Below, one piece after another: positions 1,205-35,910 of a stretch of 36,573 nt of DNA; the first letter of the stretch is position 1; every line of letters starts with the position of its first letter. The position numbers and the translations under genes are program-made. The stretch is from a virus (Duplodnaviria; Heunggongvirae; Uroviricota; Caudoviricetes). The DNA lies in IMG/VR virus record IMGVR_UViG_2728369393_000013, one strand, 5' to 3'. The notes under the pieces are model-generated. The model had not been told where the DNA came from. It saw only the letters and a program-made list of their open reading frames with translations, and did not search any database.

Positions 1205-1759
1205 AAAATAATCTCGGTGTGAGATGCTTTACGTCTTCCAAGCCCCCTTCCTTGCCGTAAATGGAAAGATACATCTAATTATAGAATTTATATGTTTTAC
1301 CCTACGGCAGTGCTGGCCATTCAATATCCTGTGCAGTTGACGTATCAACACGGTTCAGCAATACCCGATACTTTTTCCATGCTTCCAGCAACGAGATTTC
1401 TTCCTCCGTTGCAATTTCCAGATCTGCAGCATCCTGAAGCGGCGCAATATGCTCACTGGCTACCTGCATCAGGTTGTTTTTTGTTTCTTCCGCCTCCCGG
1501 ATCCGGAACAGTTTTTCTGCTTCTGCATCTTTCACCCAGGCTGTGCCGTTCCACTTCTGAAACTCCCCTTCCGGCGATAACCAGGTAACATTTTCCGGTA
1601 ACGGACCGAGTTCAGAAATAAATAACGCGTCCCCTGACGCTACGTCATAAACCGTTTTACCCGATGGTCTTCAACGAGATGCCACGATGCCTCATTGAGG
1701 TAGCCTGAGTTTAACGGACACTCCTTCCTGAAATAGAATGGCATCAGAAGGAGCTAATA

Positions 1760-19390: not shown

Positions 19391-19590
19391 TTCACTTTCT
19401 TAAATCTAACGACAGACGGCTAACATTTAAGTATTGTGAAATATTATCAAATGCAATCATCATTGATTTACAAAAGATACATTTTGCCCCGAAAGGATTC
19501 CTGTCAGAAACATCAAAAGATGATGTTCTATACTGAGAACCATGGCAACACGGGCATCTAAAGTGAATATGGTTTGTAATATTTTCTACC

Positions 19591-19803
19591 TCAAAGTGCC
19601 ACAACATGAACAGCCGCGGGGCCTTTAGGTCCGTTCTCAATACCAAATTCGACTTCCTGATTCTCAGTTAACGTTTTGAAATCGTTGCTCTGAATAGCTG
19701 AGAAATGGACAAACACATCTTTGCTACCATCTTTCGGCGTGATGAAACCAAAACCTTTTTCAGGGTTAAACCATTTCACTAAACCAGTCATTTTGTTAGA
19801 CAT
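19591..19803 (-). CDS. cspI: Cold shock protein, CspA family (70 aa)
   Basis: [38 protein letters not shown]... canonical CSD with RNP motifs. Confidence 0.9.
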
Positions 19804-20166
19804 CATTATTACCTTTTGAAGAAGTTAGCCCTTGGGCAGAATGGTCCGAAAAAAAATATCAGAGAGAAAAACCAACAAGGAAATCTCAAGAGGTACAAAT
19901 AATAAAATTATAACAATGACTGCTTCAGATAATTTTGTAACAAACCAGAACACCATTAACGCATGATTAACCAACCATAGCAAGGATTACTTTTGTAAAG
20001 AAAAACACACGAATGAAACAATAGCTTTATTTATTAATAAAACGTGTCATTCTGTCTAATGACCTTTTATCTTACCCTTAAGATTTCAAGGATTTTGACT
20101 CATGGAAGAGTCCTTTTTATTTAAATTTCACATTCAGCGCTAAAAATAATCCGATTTAATATTAAT

Positions 20167-22760: not shown

Positions 22761-23039
22761 TATTGTGGTGCTTTTTGTGGGAGTCATCCACTTACGCACT
22801 TTGTTTTGCTATGCTAGCAGTTAGCTTCTGCTGTAAAACTATTCATGCAGCAAACCTGCACTTCACCACAATGGTTAGCATACTTTTCCTGATTAAGTTA
22901 TTGCCAAATATGCTGGCCATTGTTTCATGTATTGGATCTCCTTACTATTTATTAAAGAGATCCAATATTCACCACTCTGTCTGTATCTCCACTCAGGCAT
23001 CAGCCTTCTTCGTTATCGTATACAGACAAACTATTAATT

Positions 23040-23255
23040 TTAATCAGTAATTATGACATTTGCTGCTGCAGGACCTTTAGCACCACTCTCTACAGAGAAG
23101 GTAACCTTTTGACCTTCAAATAAGGTTCGAAAATTATCATTCTGAATCGCAGAAAAATGCACAAACACATCTTTACTACCATCAACAGGAGAAATAAAGC
23201 CAAAACCTTTATCAGCGTTAAACCATTTTACTAAACCAGTCATTTTATTTGACAT
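23040..23255 (-). CDS. cspB: Cold shock protein CspB-like (71 aa)
   Basis: [53 protein letters not shown]... Confidence 0.9.
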
Positions 23256-23555
23256 TCTACATTCCTTAACTTGAGCCTTTCGGCATAAATGGCTTGTATA
23301 ACAGAAACGACTTCGTACTTAATTGGAGAGACTCAAAGAAGGAATAAGTGAATAACACCTGAAATGAGAACTGCTTTAGTAAACTACTTCGTATATCGTC
23401 TGTTCTTCAAACCGACGCAATCATTAACGCATAGTTGAACATATGAAGCAATGTTTATTTTAGACATCCAGCCATCTTCAACCCCATCAAAAAACTATAG
23501 CTTTCTTCAGGAACGTGTGTATAGTGCGCCAAGTTATCAGTATTAAGGAATTTTT

Positions 23556-25883: not shown

Positions 25884-26636
25884 TTATCTCGTCACTTTTC
25901 TTAATTGCACCTCAGCATATGCTTCTTCCTGCCAGCACTTTGTAACCAGTTTATCAATGACATCTGCATATCCTTTGTACCACTGATAATCCGTCAGGTC
26001 TGGTACCAGCTTCTGGACATGACACCGCGCCAGTGTCGTTGGTAAACGACTAAACCGGTTTCCATTGCAACGCCCACAAACCTTATAAACAGGCGTGCTA
26101 TGAAGCCGGGTTCTTTTTTCATCCAGGACAATACCTTTCCCCTTACACCCTCTGCACGCTGTGCTGACTTCTCCCTTACCATGGCAATGCTGACATAGTT
26201 CCTTCACCCACTCTTCCTTGATAACAGATTCCCCACTTCTGGAGTGTTTCACCACTTCGCGCAATACATTATGAAATCCAGTACCAGCACAATACTCACA
26301 GCGAGCCTTACTTGCCGCAGACCTGGAATAATCAGCAAAGGCAAAATTCACAAGGTAAGGGATGATCTGTAACCGGATTTCTTCACTCAATTTGTTCAAT
26401 GTCGGATTATCCATTGCCATCGCGTAATTGAGCAGACCTTCAATCGCAAACTGAGGATCCTGAACACCAACTTTTGCCAGGAATAAGGCAAAACCAAGCG
26501 GAGCTTTCGACTGCACCATCCCCTGCGCAGCCATCACATCTGTTATTGTTAAACCACCCGAGCCTGTCGCCGGTGCGTCATCACTCAATTTTGGAGATTT
26601 TGGGGAGTAATATTTTGGTAAAGCTTCAAGGTTCAT
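25884..26636 (-). CDS. quuQ: Late-gene antiterminator Q (250 aa, zinc-finger type)
   Basis: Cys-rich motifs (CEYCAGTG, CQHCHGKG, CRGCKGKG, CGRCNG); length and position upstream of lysis region. Confidence 0.8.
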   Translation of the reverse strand: MNLEALPKYYSPKSPKLSDDAPATGSGGLTITDVMAAQGMVQSKAPLGFALFLAKVGVQDPQFAIEGLLNYAMAMDNPTLNKLSEEIRLQIIPYLVNFAFADYSRSAASKARCEYCAGTGFHNVLREVVKHSRSGESVIKEEWVKELCQHCHGKGEVSTACRGCKGKGIVLDEKRTRLHSTPVYKVCGRCNGNRFSRLPTTLARCHVQKLVPDLTDYQWYKGYADVIDKLVTKCWQEEAYAEVQLRKVTR

Positions 26637-30857: not shown

Positions 30858-31090
30858 GCTGCACCTCCGAGATGCTTCATGTTTTTTCCGGAGCGAAAGG
30901 CTATAAGCGGCATACTGACGCGGTAATTACGGCCCAGCGGTTCACAAACCACCTTCTGACATTCACGGTCAACCAGGCTAACACGTAGAACATGCCCTGC
31001 AGGCGTGGTGTACCACTGACCAACGGTAGGAATTGATGTTTTTTTACGCTGAAGCAAACGGCAAATATTGAGGATCAACGGATTAAGCAT
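30854..31090 (-). CDS. Hypothetical protein (78 aa), translationally coupled to neighbours
   Basis: ORF overlapping stop of upstream and start of downstream gene by 4-8 nt. Confidence 0.4.
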   Translation of the reverse strand: MLNPLILNICRLLQRKKTSIPTVGQWYTTPAGHVLRVSLVDRECQKVVCEPLGRNYRVSMPLIAFRSGKNMKHLGGAA

Positions 31091-31919
31091 GACGATGCCC
31101 TCCGCTGATATTCAGGAAACGGTGAATATGAAGATTAGCCTTATCCGCCAGACGAATACGTTCAGCCTGCAAGTTAAGAAGGGTTTCTACCAGAACCTGA
31201 TGCGCCTGCGGATCCGAAAGAGTTACCTTGCGCAGAGCACGTAGTGCAGTTGTTACATAGCTGAGTTTATGTAAGTCTTCATCATTCAGACGAGTGAGGG
31301 CTGGGACAGTAGCCATGATGGCAGCCTCCGTATGCAATGGATAACTTCCACCACCGGAAACGCCAATTTCGCTGGTGGTGAACTGAGCAGGGTTGGCGTA
31401 ACCGGCGCATACGGAAACCGGCGCACCTTTCGGTGCCCCCACCCAGCCCACCATAATTTGGGTATAGCTGAGTTGTAGCAACAAAAAAGACGCTAACGCG
31501 CCAATTGTCGCCGTATGCAATTCCAGGACGCCAATCCCGGCACCCGCTTTATAAGGTGCCTGAACAGTGTAACGTCCCGGAATGGCAGAATCAATGTGCT
31601 GGTGGTCCTTCACACTCAACAAAATCACGCCTGAATTTCCACAAAGGGCTAAAGCACTCATGCGGGTAGTCTTTGCGAAGATAGATAACGCGCTGTGTTT
31701 CTGGCTCCCAACGAATAACATGAACATAAAGTCCTCTTCCGTCACGAAACCAGCGGTTAAGTTCCTGCACAACTCGCCCCCCACAGTCAGGTAAAGTTCT
31801 CTGTGGTTACTTACAGCCAGGAGATTTGGTAATCTGCATTCATGCCGTAACAACAGGTGTTCAGCGACGCTGACCACCAGCTGTTGCGACAAACGGTTAT
31901 TTGCCGTTAAACTGTTCAT
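31083..31919 (-). CDS. Hypothetical protein (278 aa) in replication module
   Basis: Long ORF in operon orientation; no motif recognised by eye (no Walker A). Confidence 0.45.
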   Translation of the reverse strand: MNSLTANNRLSQQLVVSVAEHLLLRHECRLPNLLAVSNHRELYLTVGGELCRNLTAGFVTEEDFMFMLFVGSQKHSALSIFAKTTRMSALALCGNSGVILLSVKDHQHIDSAIPGRYTVQAPYKAGAGIGVLELHTATIGALASFLLLQLSYTQIMVGWVGAPKGAPVSVCAGYANPAQFTTSEIGVSGGGSYPLHTEAAIMATVPALTRLNDEDLHKLSYVTTALRALRKVTLSDPQAHQVLVETLLNLQAERIRLADKANLHIHRFLNISGGHRHA

Positions 31920-32709: not shown

Positions 32710-32799
32710 ACAATATGTACCTCCGGTATACATATTACATGATTGAGATGAATCTTCAAGATACTTGTACCTTATCGGTACAAAGGTTTTAATTTCTTT
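32710..32799. promoter_or_regulatory. Divergent cI/cro promoter-operator region with perfect palindrome TTGTACC-TTATC-GGTACAA (32765-32783)
   Basis: Palindrome seen directly; TTGAAG-16-TAATAT on minus strand toward cro; TTGTAC-18-TTTAAT on plus strand ending at cI ATG. Confidence 0.55.
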
Positions 32800-33474
32800 A
32801 TGAAAACAGTCCATGACATCCGGCGGTCTAACGCCAGAAAACTGAGAGATGGTGTTGGCGGGAATTCTTCCTTTGCCACCATGATTGATCGCGAGCCAAC
32901 CCAGACCAGCAGGTTTATGGGAGATGGTGCTACTAAAAATATCGGTGACAGCATGGCACGACACATCGAAAAATGTTTCGACCTGCCTGTCGGATGGCTC
33001 GATCAAGAACACCAGACAACGAACATCACAAAAAAACCTGATGTTTCAATCACTAATAAACAAATCACATTAGTCCCTGTCATATCATGGGTACAGGCCG
33101 GAGCATGGAAAGAAGTTGGATATTCTGAGGTTGATTTGAGCACAGCAGAAACGTATCCCTGCCCTGTACCCTGTGGGGAAATGACTTATATCTTGCGGGT
33201 GATAGGTGATTCAATGATTGATGAGTACCGCCCGGGAGACATGATTTTTGTCGATCCTGAAGTACCTGCCTGCCACGGTGACGACGTTATTGCATTGATG
33301 CACGATACAGGTGAAACCACCTTCAAAAGGTTGATAGAAGATGGGACACAGCGTTATCTCAAAGCGTTAAACCCAAACTGGCCTGAGCCTTACATTAAGA
33401 TCAACGGTAATTGCTCTATAATTGGTACTGTGATTTTCTCAGGAAAACCAAGAAGATACAAAATCAAAGCCTAA
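32800..33474 (+). CDS. CI-type repressor with C-terminal S24 (LexA-like) autopeptidase domain (224 aa)
   Basis: C-terminal GDSM (Ser nucleophile) and downstream Lys; architecture like P22 C2/lambda CI. Confidence 0.8.
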   Translation: MKTVHDIRRSNARKLRDGVGGNSSFATMIDREPTQTSRFMGDGATKNIGDSMARHIEKCFDLPVGWLDQEHQTTNITKKPDVSITNKQITLVPVISWVQAGAWKEVGYSEVDLSTAETYPCPVPCGEMTYILRVIGDSMIDEYRPGDMIFVDPEVPACHGDDVIALMHDTGETTFKRLIEDGTQRYLKALNPNWPEPYIKINGNCSIIGTVIFSGKPRRYKIKA

Positions 33475-33488
33475 TCAATGTTTATGAA

Positions 33489-33510
33489 CCTGCTTCGGCA
33501 GGTTTTTTTA
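33489..33510 (+). terminator. Rho-independent terminator after cI
   Basis: CCTGCTTCGGCAGG hairpin followed by T7. Confidence 0.75.
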
Positions 33511-33513
33511 TAC

Positions 33514-33542
33514 TTGACAGTGTACCTTTGAGATACATAATG
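33514..33542 (+). promoter_or_regulatory. Candidate sigma70 promoter (TTGACA-16-CATAAT) immediately after cI terminator
   Basis: Near-consensus -35 and -10 hexamers seen directly; overlaps TGTACC operator-like motifs. Confidence 0.45.
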
Positions 33543-33624
33543 TACCCAAGAGAAACAACAAACAGGCAGGACGCCCACGAAGTAGCCGCCTGGGGCATAT
33601 GAAGTCCAGGATGATTCGTTAGCA

Positions 33625-33650
33625 ACAAAAAAGCGCCCTATAGGACGCTT
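33625..33650 (-). terminator. Rho-independent terminator (minus strand) for DUF1311-like gene
   Basis: On minus strand AGCGTCC-TATA-GGGCGCT hairpin (one mismatch) followed by T6. Confidence 0.5.
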
Positions 33651-33676
33651 CGCTCTTTAACAATCTGGATGACTTA

Positions 33677-34189
33677 TTACTCAGATTTGAACTTTGGTTC
33701 TGGCAAAAGAGGAGGAGTTGAGTCCTCGAATCGTAGCCAGTGCTCCCAGATATCGTGGGATTGTAATTCCAGAAGACCAATTTGACGTGATGCAACTGCA
33801 GTGCCAGCTATAGTTCCTCCTGCATAATCAACCTGGACGGACTTTGACGCTTTCTCAATTAATTCTGTCCAAGCTTCACTTTCCGCGTTAAAAGAAGCAG
33901 TTAATTCCTGCAGACGCTGTGGATCATCCTTGTTGTCTTGTTTCAAACGATTCAGGGCGGCCACCGAATACTTATTCTTAACCCAACTAACCTGAGCTAA
34001 CTGAACTCTCTGACAAGCGTCCATATCAGTAGTTGTTTCCTGAGGCATATCAAAGCAGGAAATAAAAAAAGTCTCAACACCATCATTTAGACTACTGCTC
34101 GGCTGGTTCAAAGCATCAGAAGCATTGGATGCTATCGGTATTATCAGTGCTACCGACAGAATCAAACGTTTAACATAAATCGCTCCCAT
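33677..34189 (-). CDS. Secreted DUF1311 (LprI lysozyme-inhibitor-like) protein, 170 aa, moron between cI and pL
   Basis: N-terminal signal peptide (KRLILSVALIIPIASNA); C-terminal EAWTELIEKASKSVQVDYAGGTIAGTAVASRQIGLLELQSHDIWE matches DUF1311 pattern as recalled; SD GAGGGG before ATG. Confidence 0.5.
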   Translation of the reverse strand: MGAIYVKRLILSVALIIPIASNASDALNQPSSSLNDGVETFFISCFDMPQETTTDMDACQRVQLAQVSWVKNKYSVAALNRLKQDNKDDPQRLQELTASFNAESEAWTELIEKASKSVQVDYAGGTIAGTAVASRQIGLLELQSHDIWEHWLRFEDSTPPLLPEPKFKSE

Positions 34190-34477
34190 TTAATTATCCC
34201 CTCTAAGAACAGAGTCATCCAGATTAGCCGAATCCTTGTTGTTGGGGAATAACCAGGCCCACCTCGCCTGATGTGGCTAAAAGCAGGCACATAACAGCTA
34301 AGTATTTTCAACCAGAGAGAATCCTTAGCGTTGTGGTGAATGCGGCTCAGCGCACGCGGGTTAAGGTTGAGGCTGACAGTCGACCTTCTGTGGATACCCA
34401 CCCGCCTGGTGTGCAACCTTCGCCAGGCACCGGGAGGCACCCGGCACCACAACTTTATGCTGTGTGTAGTCCTGGCG

Positions 34478-34511
34478 GTACCAGTTTGTACCCTTGCTTC
34501 CGGCTGGTACC
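34478..34511. promoter_or_regulatory. Putative OL/pL operator region with three GTACC-core motifs
   Basis: GGTACC (34478-34483), TTGTACC (34486-34492), GGTACC (34506-34511) resemble half-sites of the OR palindrome. Confidence 0.4.
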
Positions 34512-34608
34512 GCTCTTTTTACAAAACAGAGAAGAGCATCACCGGACGACGGGCTCATAACCCAATCCATCCGGGCGGCTGCCACCGCAGGTGTTCTTCT
34601 CTGTTTTG
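34512..34608 (+). other. Structured leader element: boxA-like CGCTCTTTTTA followed by long imperfect stem-loop (arms 34522-34536 and 34594-34608)
   Basis: Inverted repeat CAAAACAGAGAAGAG / TTCTTCTCTGTTTTG (14 of 15 bp complementary) enclosing 57 nt with internal GC-rich pairing. Confidence 0.4.
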
Positions 34609-34657
34609 TGGAGAAACCAACCGACCTTGCAGGGTCGATATGATTAGGAGTAGCAAA

Positions 34658-35020
34658 ATGGCTAGCGAACGCAGTACCAACGTGCAGGAATTTATCGTAG
34701 AACTGGACGGCGGCGTATTTGAAACCAAACTCGGCGCAGTTCTCAGCGAAGTCGCTTCCGGTGTGATGAACACGAAAAACAAAGGTAAAGTCTCGGTCAA
34801 TCTGGACATCGAACCGTTTGATGAGAACCGTGTGAAAATCAAACACAAACTCTCATATGTTCGCCCGACTAACCGCGGGAAAATTTCCGAAGAAGACACC
34901 ACCGAAACGCCGATGTATGTCAATCGCGGTGGTCGCCTGACTATTCTGCAGGAAGACCAGGGACAGTTACTGACTCTTGCCGGTGAACCTGACGGAAAAC
35001 TCCGCGCAGCAGGTCGTTAA
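34658..35020 (+). CDS. Hypothetical early protein (120 aa), first gene of leftward operon
   Basis: AGGAG SD 7 nt upstream of ATG at 34658; longer listed ORF is an upstream extension across the leader. Confidence 0.55.
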   Translation: MASERSTNVQEFIVELDGGVFETKLGAVLSEVASGVMNTKNKGKVSVNLDIEPFDENRVKIKHKLSYVRPTNRGKISEEDTTETPMYVNRGGRLTILQEDQGQLLTLAGEPDGKLRAAGR

Positions 35021-35085
35021 TATCGTTTTTAATAAACTGATTATTTATCTCATCACTGAATATCTTTATATAGTGAGGACTTATT

Positions 35086-35910
35086 ATGTCTCAGAACTTA
35101 GACGCAACCGCAATTAATCAAATCCATGCTCTTATTTCTGCTCAGGGTGTTAATGAAATTATCAGTAAGATTGGTGCCGATGCCGTGGCATTGCCTGAGA
35201 ATTTCCGCATTCATGATCTGGAAAAATTTAATTTAAATCGCTTCCGTTTCCGTGGTGCGCTTTCCACTGCCAGCATTGATGACTTTACCCGTTATTCTAA
35301 AGATCTTGCAGATGAAGGCACCCGCTGCTTTATCGATGCCGATAATATGCGAGCCGTCAGTGTGCTTAACCTGGGTACTATTGATGAACCAGGTCACGCA
35401 GATAACACCGCCACTCTCAAACTGAAAAAGACAGCACCGTTCTCTGCCCTGTTGTCTGTTAACGGCGAGCGTAACTCCCAGAAGTCACTGGCAGAATGGA
35501 TTGAAGACTGGGCCGACTACCTTGTGGGCTTTGATGCTAATGGTGACGCCATTCAGGCAACAAAAGCGGCTGCGGCAGTCCGTAAAATCACGATTGAAGC
35601 AAACCAGACCGCTGATTTTGAAGATAGTGACTTCAGCGGCAAACGCTCCCTGATGGAATCTGTCGAAGCGAAGACCAAAGACATTATGCCAGTGGCATTT
35701 GAATTTAAATGCGTTCCGTTTGAAGGCCTGAAAGAACGTCCGTTTAAATTACGCCTCAGCATTATCACTGGCGATCGTCCTGTACTGGTTCTGCGCATTA
35801 TTCAGCTGGAAGCAGTGCAGGAAGAAATGGCTAACGAATTTCGTGATCTGCTTGTTGAGAAATTCAAAGACAGCAAAGTAGAAACCTTTATTGGTACTTT
35901 TACCGCCTGA
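35086..35910 (+). CDS. yfdQ: YfdQ-like (DUF2303) prophage protein, 274 aa
   Basis: Length and gene order match CPS-53 yfdQ-yfdR pair; assignment from memory. Confidence 0.5.

Follow-up and report, generated by a model that had tools for sequence, protein, structure and literature searches.

A predicted STnc100/PasD-type terminator and a conserved three-way-junction RNA in the pL leader of an N-less lambdoid prophage

In phage lambda the early left region is ordered pL, nutL, RNase III site and N, and the leaders of ribosomal RNA (rrn) operons have the order boxB-boxA; antitermination by put RNA, the system of phages HK022 and HK639, is not known to need Nus factors. The put element consists of two stem-loops in a V shape (PMC9378689). 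STnc100 and PasD are related prophage small RNAs (bioRxiv 10.64898/2026.05.13.724894); all 11 STnc100 copies of EDL933, an enterohaemorrhagic Escherichia coli (EHEC), have transcriptome reads, with about 100-1900 reads per kilobase per million (RPKM), and one of them was verified by Northern blot (PMC5331693). In Salmonella LT2, STnc100 has been displayed together with the pattern in which RpoD and RpoN bind promoter regions (PMC10794520). Here we analyze a 36,573-nt stretch of DNA (IMG/VR record IMGVR_UViG_2728369393_000013; hereafter the window), which is identical to a segment of the chromosome of E. coli CFSAN004176 and represents a partly insertion sequence (IS)-disrupted, N-less lambdoid E. 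coli prophage of the SfV/ST64B/CPS-53 kind, and in particular the 192 bp at 34466-34657. An original prediction had read this segment as a pL-side leader with three GTACC operator-like motifs, a boxA-like string (CGCTCTTTTTA, 34511-34521) and an ~87-nt imperfect hairpin placed directly before the first early gene, and had proposed an unusual antitermination arrangement, either RNA-based like put or relying on a nut site for a factor from elsewhere. With a probability of about 70%, we instead take the segment to be an intrinsic terminator (T), forming the 3' end of an STnc100/PasD-like RNA, followed by a conserved three-way-junction (3WJ) RNA, the whole lying inside the pL leader.

Terminator T and the three-way junction

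The flagged segment and its surroundings contain the following features.

34300-34522, plus strand: STnc100/PasD-family RNA element (Rfam RF02076, 46.5 bits, E = 1.9e-8)
34474-34520, plus strand: intrinsic terminator T, made of GGCGGUACCAG (34474-34484), a 19-nt loop, CUGGUACCGC (34504-34513) and UCUUUUU
34521-34609, plus strand: 3WJ, a conserved three-way-junction RNA, from folding and from covariation in the alignment
34610-34660, plus strand: post-3WJ segment with GGAGAAAC (34610-34617), a hairpin CGACC-UUGCAG-GGUCG (34622-34637), the Shine-Dalgarno sequence AGGAG (34646-34650) and the ATG (34658-34660)

The string flagged as operators and boxA is in reality a terminator stem and its U-tract. 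T holds all three GTACC copies (34478-34482, 34488-34492 and 34507-34511) as well as the boxA-like string: two copies sit, as palindromes, in the middle of either arm of a single hairpin (GGCGGTACCAG, 34474-34484, and CTGGTACCGC, 34504-34513), the third lies in the loop, and CGCTCTTTTTA corresponds to the stem end plus U-tract. The local cluster thus arises because GGTACC is palindromic and present in both arms of one hairpin, and the hexamer is not enriched in the window (6 occurrences versus 4.5 expected). By its anatomy, a G+C-rich hairpin directly before a U-tract, T is an intrinsic (Rho-independent) terminator, termination itself being predicted; its stem has 11 bp, or 13 bp with two G-U pairs, its predicted stability is -20 to -33 kcal/mol, and Rfam aligns it to the terminal hairpin and U-tract of the STnc100 model.

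Relatives display at least six different T stem sequences, all of them paired. Pairing is kept in ST64B (5' arm GUCGGCGUC, 3' arm GACGCCGAC), in Kp4866-6 (5' arm GGCGGUUAUCCA, 3' arm UGGAUAACCGCC) and in loci L127, L128 and L108, which have other sequences in both arms, and also in SfV, where CCGCUC has become CCGUCC, exchanging a G-C and a G-U pair. The stem is followed by YYUUUUUAC in all relatives except L108 and L115 (UUUUUCAGG; U-tract then CAGG). At the position of CGCTCTTTTTA, relatives have CGTCCTTTTTA, CGCCCTTTTTA or CGACCTTTTTA, with pairing and U-tract kept. The spacer between yfdO and yfdP in the CPS-53 prophage of E. coli K-12 has lost both T and the 3WJ, and CPS-53 was therefore discarded as a proxy for expression.

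An operator function of the GTACC motifs does not survive this comparison. The half-sites in T are everted (GGTACC-N4-TGTACC) or 13 nt apart, unlike the TGTACC-N5-GGTACA arrangement at the right and left operators (OR and OL), and phages whose operators are unrelated, mEp460 and L019 among them, have the hairpin too, which indicates that it is not an immunity site. Equally, a nut-like reading, in which CGCTCTTTTTA would act as boxA and the following hairpin in the role of boxB for an N-like factor encoded elsewhere, with GTACC operators upstream, is hardly tenable. It can point to CGCTCTT, which has 7 of the 8 bases of the lambda boxA, to the hairpin on the 3' side of this motif, and to mEp460, which shares the segment and comes from a collection of Nus-dependent phages (PMC11893012). 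However, CGCTCTTTTTA at 34511-34521 is not a lambdoid boxA (CGCUCUUA / UGCUCUUUAACA), overlaps the terminator stem and U-tract, and is not conserved in SfV, ST64B, Kp4866-6 and other relatives; what these retain is the pairing and the U-tract. No boxB (a short stem-loop whose pentaloop is rich in purines, a few bases 3' of boxA) follows CGCTCTTTTTA; the hairpin there is an 89-nt three-way junction and not a 15-nt boxB. Finally, the GTACC copies are stem or loop bases and are present also in other immunity types, an N-like protein was not found in the window, and it is at 33652-33663 that a true consensus boxA is present.

Upstream, T is embedded in an RNA with affinity to STnc100/PasD. RF02076 aligns over its full length (model positions 1-206) to 34300-34522, including all three of the closing helix, the conserved 3' hairpin and the terminator. 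The closing stem GUUGUGGUG (34330-34338) pairs with CACCACAAC (34445-34453), there are several internal hairpins, and the 3' hairpin CCGGG-AGGCA-CCCGG (34430-34444) lies inside a 22-mer (CACCGGGAGGCACCCGGCACCA, 34428-34449) that is identical in hundreds of Shiga toxin (Stx) phages and is followed by a single-stranded linker and then T. The fold of the whole region has a z-score of -7.0. Taken together at the level of sequence and predicted structure, the copy in the window is a borderline and divergent STnc100 member, unusual in being placed in the pL leader. A copy in HK639, located downstream of Q, scores 52.6 bits, above threshold. The STnc100-like core is exchanged for a shorter or different one in mEp460, L019 and L123, where T and the following part remain, and is absent in L115, L108 and L109, which nevertheless have T and the 3WJ; a core-only copy is found in the ban operon of P7. 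After the 3WJ, relatives have GGAGAAA and a small hairpin of variable sequence, even with a different first gene. Since T and the 3WJ occur without the STnc100 core and ahead of different first genes, they form a leader module in their own right and not an appendage of yfdP.

A second promoter 5' of the STnc100-like element on which Q could act was considered and rejected, as the region downstream of Q (~25880-25700) is unlike 34200-34300. As a separate observation, a conserved hairpin CCACCNCGCCUGAUGUGG followed by UAAAAGCAGGC (34259-34290, plus strand), also seen in L115, L019, L109 and Kp4866-6, marks the boundary at which leader module and moron are exchanged, and ST64B, L019 and L115 have a further large module closed by a long-range helix GGUGUCUUCGGGAGGGG...CCCCGCCCGAAGAUACC.

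The long imperfect hairpin of the original prediction is real, although at 89 nt (34521-34609; arms 34521-34545 / 34585-34609) and as a three-way junction, and a put- or nut-type role for it is not supported. Folded alone, it reaches -51.2 kcal/mol (z = -7.8), with none of 200 shuffled sequences as stable. A 20-bp outer stem (34521-34540 / 34590-34609) encloses hairpin 1 (34542-34574) and hairpin 2 (34575-34588), the latter variable in length among relatives. Across 18 distinct relatives, 96.4% of cells in the alignment are paired versus 42-55% with slid partners, seven pairs are changed on both sides, and compensatory changes uphold both the outer stem and hairpin 1, so that the structure is conserved in related phages, and the missing conservation that would have refuted the original prediction is not what is seen. 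The 23-nt tip CGACGGGCUCAUAACCCAAUCCA (34547-34569), with the consensus CGACGGGCUCAUWACCCAAUCCA, varies across genera only at W plus two single-locus variants. These compensatory changes and the near-invariant tip argue for selection on the present structure and, as far as an alignment can tell, the 3WJ is an RNA structure under selection. A leader peptide across the 3WJ was also considered; an open reading frame (ORF) in Kp4866-6 does overlap the yfdP start, but it was rejected since its frame is not conserved in the window.

The tip contains GGG-CUCAUAA-CCC, resembling a CAU anticodon arm, and has a 14-mer, CGGGCUCAUAACCC, in common with that arm of the tRNA-fMet of E. coli (the initiator tRNA sequence was confirmed). 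In Klebsiella phage GZ7 (L006 2503-2590), a 3WJ relative ending in ...CAGGCCACCA lies directly after a tRNA-Arg gene, downstream of Q, and T-arm-like GGUUCGAUUCC hairpins occur in neighbouring leader modules (L019, Kp4866-6), which together make an origin in a tRNA cluster, and thereby the derivation of the 3WJ from a tRNA, plausible from the sequences. STnc100 cores are likewise found near tRNA genes in P7 and HK639; overall, the data suggest that the 3WJ and STnc100-like RNAs descend from phage tRNA clusters. All four of these observations would also fit a stricter alternative, namely that the 3WJ, and perhaps the STnc100-like core too, is a functionless, decaying tRNA gene cluster carried along by recombination. 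We consider this very unlikely: the outer stem and hairpin 1 are upheld by compensatory changes and the tip is variable at three positions only; ARAGORN calls no tRNA in the window, and neither a tRNA model nor any other Rfam family matches the 3WJ (E<=10, 33400-35100); and by our estimate a single shared 14-mer, with one of ~40 tRNA species, is by itself not beyond chance. Separately, P7 has STnc100-core/3WJ relatives (L004 2812-2896 and 3009-3124) beside tRNA genes, including a tRNA-Sec-like match of 46.6 bits. Late or ban operons are the setting of these and of the GZ7 relative.

The promoter-proximal leader and read-through of T

The promoter end of the leader carries three further features.

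33514-33541, plus strand: probable pL, TTGACA-16-CATAAT, with 11 of 12 consensus matches
33556-33622, plus strand: structured leader RNA of ~67 nt, here called PLE, ~10-15 nt after the predicted pL start
33630-33663, plus strand: hairpin and rrn-type boxA, the latter an exact GCTCTTTAACAA at 33652-33663 (C-GCTCTTTAACAA at 33651-33663)

The cI operators, 17-bp inverted repeats of the form TGTACC-N5-GGTACA, are located at 32716-32732 and 32766-32782 (OR) and at 33521-33537, where the operator TGTACCTTTGAGATACA sits between the pL hexamers and its repeats match those of the OR sites; an extra TGTACC lies 3' of the -10 hexamer. From its sequence, 33514-33541 is probably the pL/OL expected right after the cI terminator, and the order of promoter, immunity-specific operator-like repeats and PLE is common to every sampled related locus. 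The flagged segment therefore does belong to the pL leader, as originally predicted, yet it adjoins neither operators nor promoter: pL lies ~930 bp upstream, and the leader from pL to the first leftward gene spans ~1.1 kb, mostly untranslated.

The core of PLE, AGGCAGGACGCCCACGAAGUAGC, is invariant and is framed by two helices, P1 and P3. The 18-mer is found in at least 120 viral contigs and in many Enterobacterales genera, plus one Pseudomonas genome. In the alignment, 97.6% of cells are paired versus 24-46% with slid partners, with nine pairs and 123 cells changed on both sides. The PLE covariance model scores 85.8 bits on the single copy of the window and finds exactly one copy per phage; it has no match in HK022, HK639 or mEp460, and no Rfam family matches PLE (E<=10). 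A second copy on the PR side, by analogy with putR/nutR, is present neither in the window (filters off) nor in 20 loci. Hits in Planctomycetes, Myxococcales and other distant groups were rejected as chance matches within coding sequence, with low model scores and no Rfam match.

The hairpin before boxA doubles as a terminator of the moron on the opposite strand (minus strand, 33651-33630). The boxA 12-mer occurs once in the window, with 0.14 matches expected even when one mismatch is allowed, and PLE is followed by the same unit of hairpin and boxA in 16 of 152 distinct loci (~10% of PLE loci), which belong to several genera. In the Xenorhabdus locus L222, boxA is followed by a lambda-like boxB, GCGCUGAAAAAGCGC, a boxB-like hairpin seen in this locus only, and in Xenorhabdus L224 and L213 boxA occurs with N-like proteins bearing ...RRYERRAAFLAKK... 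motifs. PLE thus stands alongside canonical nutL and N in Xenorhabdus, which indicates that it is not simply a replacement for N. In SfV, PLE, T and the 3WJ are present, and boxA and N are absent.

As in the original prediction, no arginine-rich N-like ORF was found. In the window neither Pfam nor PHROGs identifies an N-like protein: matches comprise cro-, CII-, replication-, KilA-N-, RusA- and Q-type proteins, the only antiterminator among them being of Q type (25884-26636). A scan for arginine-rich N-termini returned out-of-frame artefacts plus one antisense ORF (34162-34452, minus strand). The latter was rejected as a hidden N, as it is antisense to the STnc100-like RNA and broken in ST64B, Kp4866-6 and HK639. 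The SfV orf33, which occupies the position of the moron, is not arginine-rich, and no N is listed in the annotated relatives with the same leader (SPN3UB, ZF40, mEp237). An N homologue elsewhere, which would have supplied a factor for a nut site, was likewise not found in the window.

The conservation of a strong terminator in the stretch from pL to the first early gene, in a phage without N, makes some form of read-through or antitermination plausible; to this extent the original proposal of an unusual arrangement stands, whereas its assignment of a put or nut element to the flagged segment does not. We propose that in the lysogen T would end the small RNA (members of this family are known to be expressed from promoters of their own) and would insulate the early-left genes. 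After induction, expression of yfdP and the following genes would require polymerases from pL to traverse a mostly untranslated stretch of ~1.1 kb and to pass T. Passage through T could result either from leakiness of T or from an elongation complex modified upstream; for the latter, PLE RNA is a candidate modifier, as is, in this prophage, the rrn-type boxA/Nus site (33652-33663). As for the 3WJ, its 20-bp duplex would most plausibly be a processing or stabilising structure, e.g., an RNase III substrate, and may also serve translational control of the downstream mRNA.

The 70% given to our reading draws directly on the anatomy and conservation of the terminator, its STnc100 affinity, the covariation of the 3WJ, the positions of pL and the operators, and the lack of an N-like protein. 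Beyond these, we infer by what route T is read through, what the 3WJ and PLE do, and from which promoter the small RNA is made. Several points weigh against it. The STnc100 score is 0.5 bit under the gathering score of 47 bits, and the SfV copy reaches just 39.5 bits; STnc100/PasD RNAs normally reside in the late operon near Q and lysis genes, not in a pL leader; and a promoter scan, with 34260-34300 read by eye, revealed no convincing sigma-70 promoter directly upstream of the window copy, which may therefore be made only within the pL transcript. SfV has T and the 3WJ in the absence of boxA and N, so that boxA is not a general solution. Termination at T and its read-through are both predicted, and it is from the geometry of the 3WJ that we suggest RNase III processing or stabilisation as its role.

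It is possible, if doubtful, that no dedicated antitermination operates at all, T being a leaky attenuator that enough transcription from pL or from the small-RNA promoter passes, with the 3WJ merely processing or stabilising the mRNA. The large loop of 13-19 nt, the interruption of the U-tract by a C, and the viability of SfV despite a T without boxA and N are all consistent with this. On the other side, the stem is of -20 kcal/mol or stronger, is followed by 5-6 U, and is conserved with compensation across genera, which argues for selection for efficient termination, and Rho would likewise have access to the untranslated leader over ~1 kb.

Alternatively, read-through could be an RNA-based processive antitermination of the HK022 put kind, in which nascent PLE would bind the polymerase and carry it past T and the Rho sites of the leader; T would then be a regulated barrier, and the flagged region a target and not an effector. 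In position (promoter-proximal) and size (~67 nt) PLE corresponds to putL, its core is invariant across Enterobacterales, suggesting a conserved host partner, and it is present in a single copy on the side of the left operon, as annotated for the putL of HK639. The conserved strong terminator downstream and the lack of N in SfV-, ST64B-, SPN3UB-, ZF40- and mEp237-type phages would also fit. We nonetheless regard this as unlikely. PLE is unlike the HK022 and HK639 put elements both in sequence, as compared by eye, and by its model, which scores nothing on them, and it accompanies boxA-boxB and N-like proteins in Xenorhabdus prophages. A terminator-like site occurs on the plus strand within 1.3 kb downstream in just 44 of 95 distinct PLE loci, versus 27 of 95 on the minus strand, so that this census is only mildly and weakly supportive. 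The mEp phages, moreover, were collected as Nus-dependent phages (PMC11893012), at odds with the put mode outlined at the outset.

A bolder extension, which we rate as distinctly improbable, is that in N-less Enterobacterales phages of the SfV/ST64B type the early-left operon is under a so far undescribed, protein-independent RNA control, in which PLE modifies the elongation complex for passage through T, after which a tRNA-derived 3WJ with its mimic of a CAU anticodon arm processes or gates the message. If true, hundreds of prophages would carry put-like antiterminator RNAs of a second class that is not related to put itself.

Irrespective of the route, the analysis corrects a misreading, in that the supposed operator, boxA and nut elements are a terminator, and it places pL, the operators and the true boxA. 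It further indicates that very common prophages of E. coli, Shigella and Salmonella (SfV, SfII, SfIV, ST64B, mEp460, CPS-53-like and some Stx2c phages) are N-less and keep a strong terminator between pL and the early-left genes, which beyond T presumably include the excision and integration genes, as in SfV. Around this terminator lies a patchwork of conserved folded RNAs, of which PLE and the 3WJ covary clearly and have no Rfam family. The system can be used to ask how N-less lambdoid phages reach early read-through and what role STnc100-type RNAs play in cis.

Prophage setting

The leader lies between the immunity region and the yfd genes, in the following order.

ending at ~32709, minus strand: cro-like gene (ORF list, Pfam and PHROGs)
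between the cro-like gene and cI: OR, with two 17-bp operator repeats
32800-33474, plus strand: cI-type repressor gene of the LexA/S24 family, an ORF with the length and layout of SfV cI
33486-33505, plus strand: cI terminator, a terminator-like site
33677-34189, minus strand: convergent moron for a 170-aa secreted protein (phrog_7681, with a weak match to LprI)
34658-35020, plus strand: yfdP-like first gene (ATG 34658-34660; phrog_204 match; PGAP 'yfdP')

PGAP labels 32800-33474 as 'ymfK: LexA family protein'. The convergent moron is replaced in SfV by orf33 on the plus strand, and in the window ~470 bp of non-coding DNA separate the moron from the yfdP-like gene, the first of a plus-strand series of yfdP-, yfdQ- and yfdR-like genes in that order downstream of the leader. 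Inverted repeats of 24 nt (79% complementary) at 33662-33685 and 34202-34225 exactly flank the minus-strand moron; they could be the mark of a mobile cassette, or could form a long-range helix in the pL transcript, looping out the antisense insert.

Other RNA elements are present elsewhere in the window. In the PR operon, 3' of the CII-like gene, a C4 antisense RNA (31371-31458, 80.7 bits) and isrK (31483-31559, 61.2 bits), both on the minus strand, indicate a second immunity or antirepressor control, RNA-based and of the P1/P7 type; a 278-aa ORF (31083-31919) that overlaps them is probably not genuine along its full extent. Two cspA-type thermoregulator leaders of cold-shock genes are located at 19545-19961 and 22977-23416 (minus strand), an IS009 RNA lies inside the prophage at 1336-1534 (minus strand), and the late region is split by IS3- and IS66-family insertions.

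Comparison with put, nutL, rrn boxA and STnc100/PasD

HK022 and HK639 resemble this locus in being N-less phages with a structured RNA in the pL leader and terminators downstream, and it is PLE, not the flagged segment, that occupies the promoter-proximal position of putL. In contrast, the flagged hairpin is ~1 kb from pL and after a terminator, and the 3WJ, like PLE, has the form of a junction with an outer closing helix. Compared by eye with putL and putR of HK022 and HK639 (two stem-loops, ~70 nt), no similarity was seen, Rfam having no put model; the put-like element of the original prediction is not supported. HK639 also has, besides its putL-like RNA, an 'M3-like RNA' annotated after cII (L009 6911-6970).

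With nutL and the N-leader of lambda, the locus shares a promoter, a boxA (the consensus copy at 33652-33663) and a long duplex just before the first early gene, the 20-bp duplex of the 3WJ being comparable to the RNase III hairpin, with cleavage here putative. It differs in that no boxB stands beside the boxA and no N gene is found in the window, that an intrinsic terminator and a small-RNA element intervene, and that the first gene is yfdP-like. The likeness to the rrn boxA consists of an exact 12-mer, GCUCUUUAACAA, with a hairpin before it, heading a long untranslated stretch that is a potential Rho target; no boxC was identified, and, unlike in rrn operons, the setting is a phage pL operon, with the unit in ~10% of PLE loci and absent from SfV.

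Finally, the window copy shares with STnc100/PasD the closing stem, a GGUGAAU motif, the 3' hairpin, the single-stranded linker before an intrinsic terminator, the prophage location and the full-length alignment to the model. It differs in lying in the early-left pL leader, not near Q, stx or lysis genes, in its other internal hairpins, in its fusion to the conserved 3WJ, and in a core that is exchangeable or absent in relatives. The STnc100 family is known; the 3WJ is a conserved leader structure without prior description.

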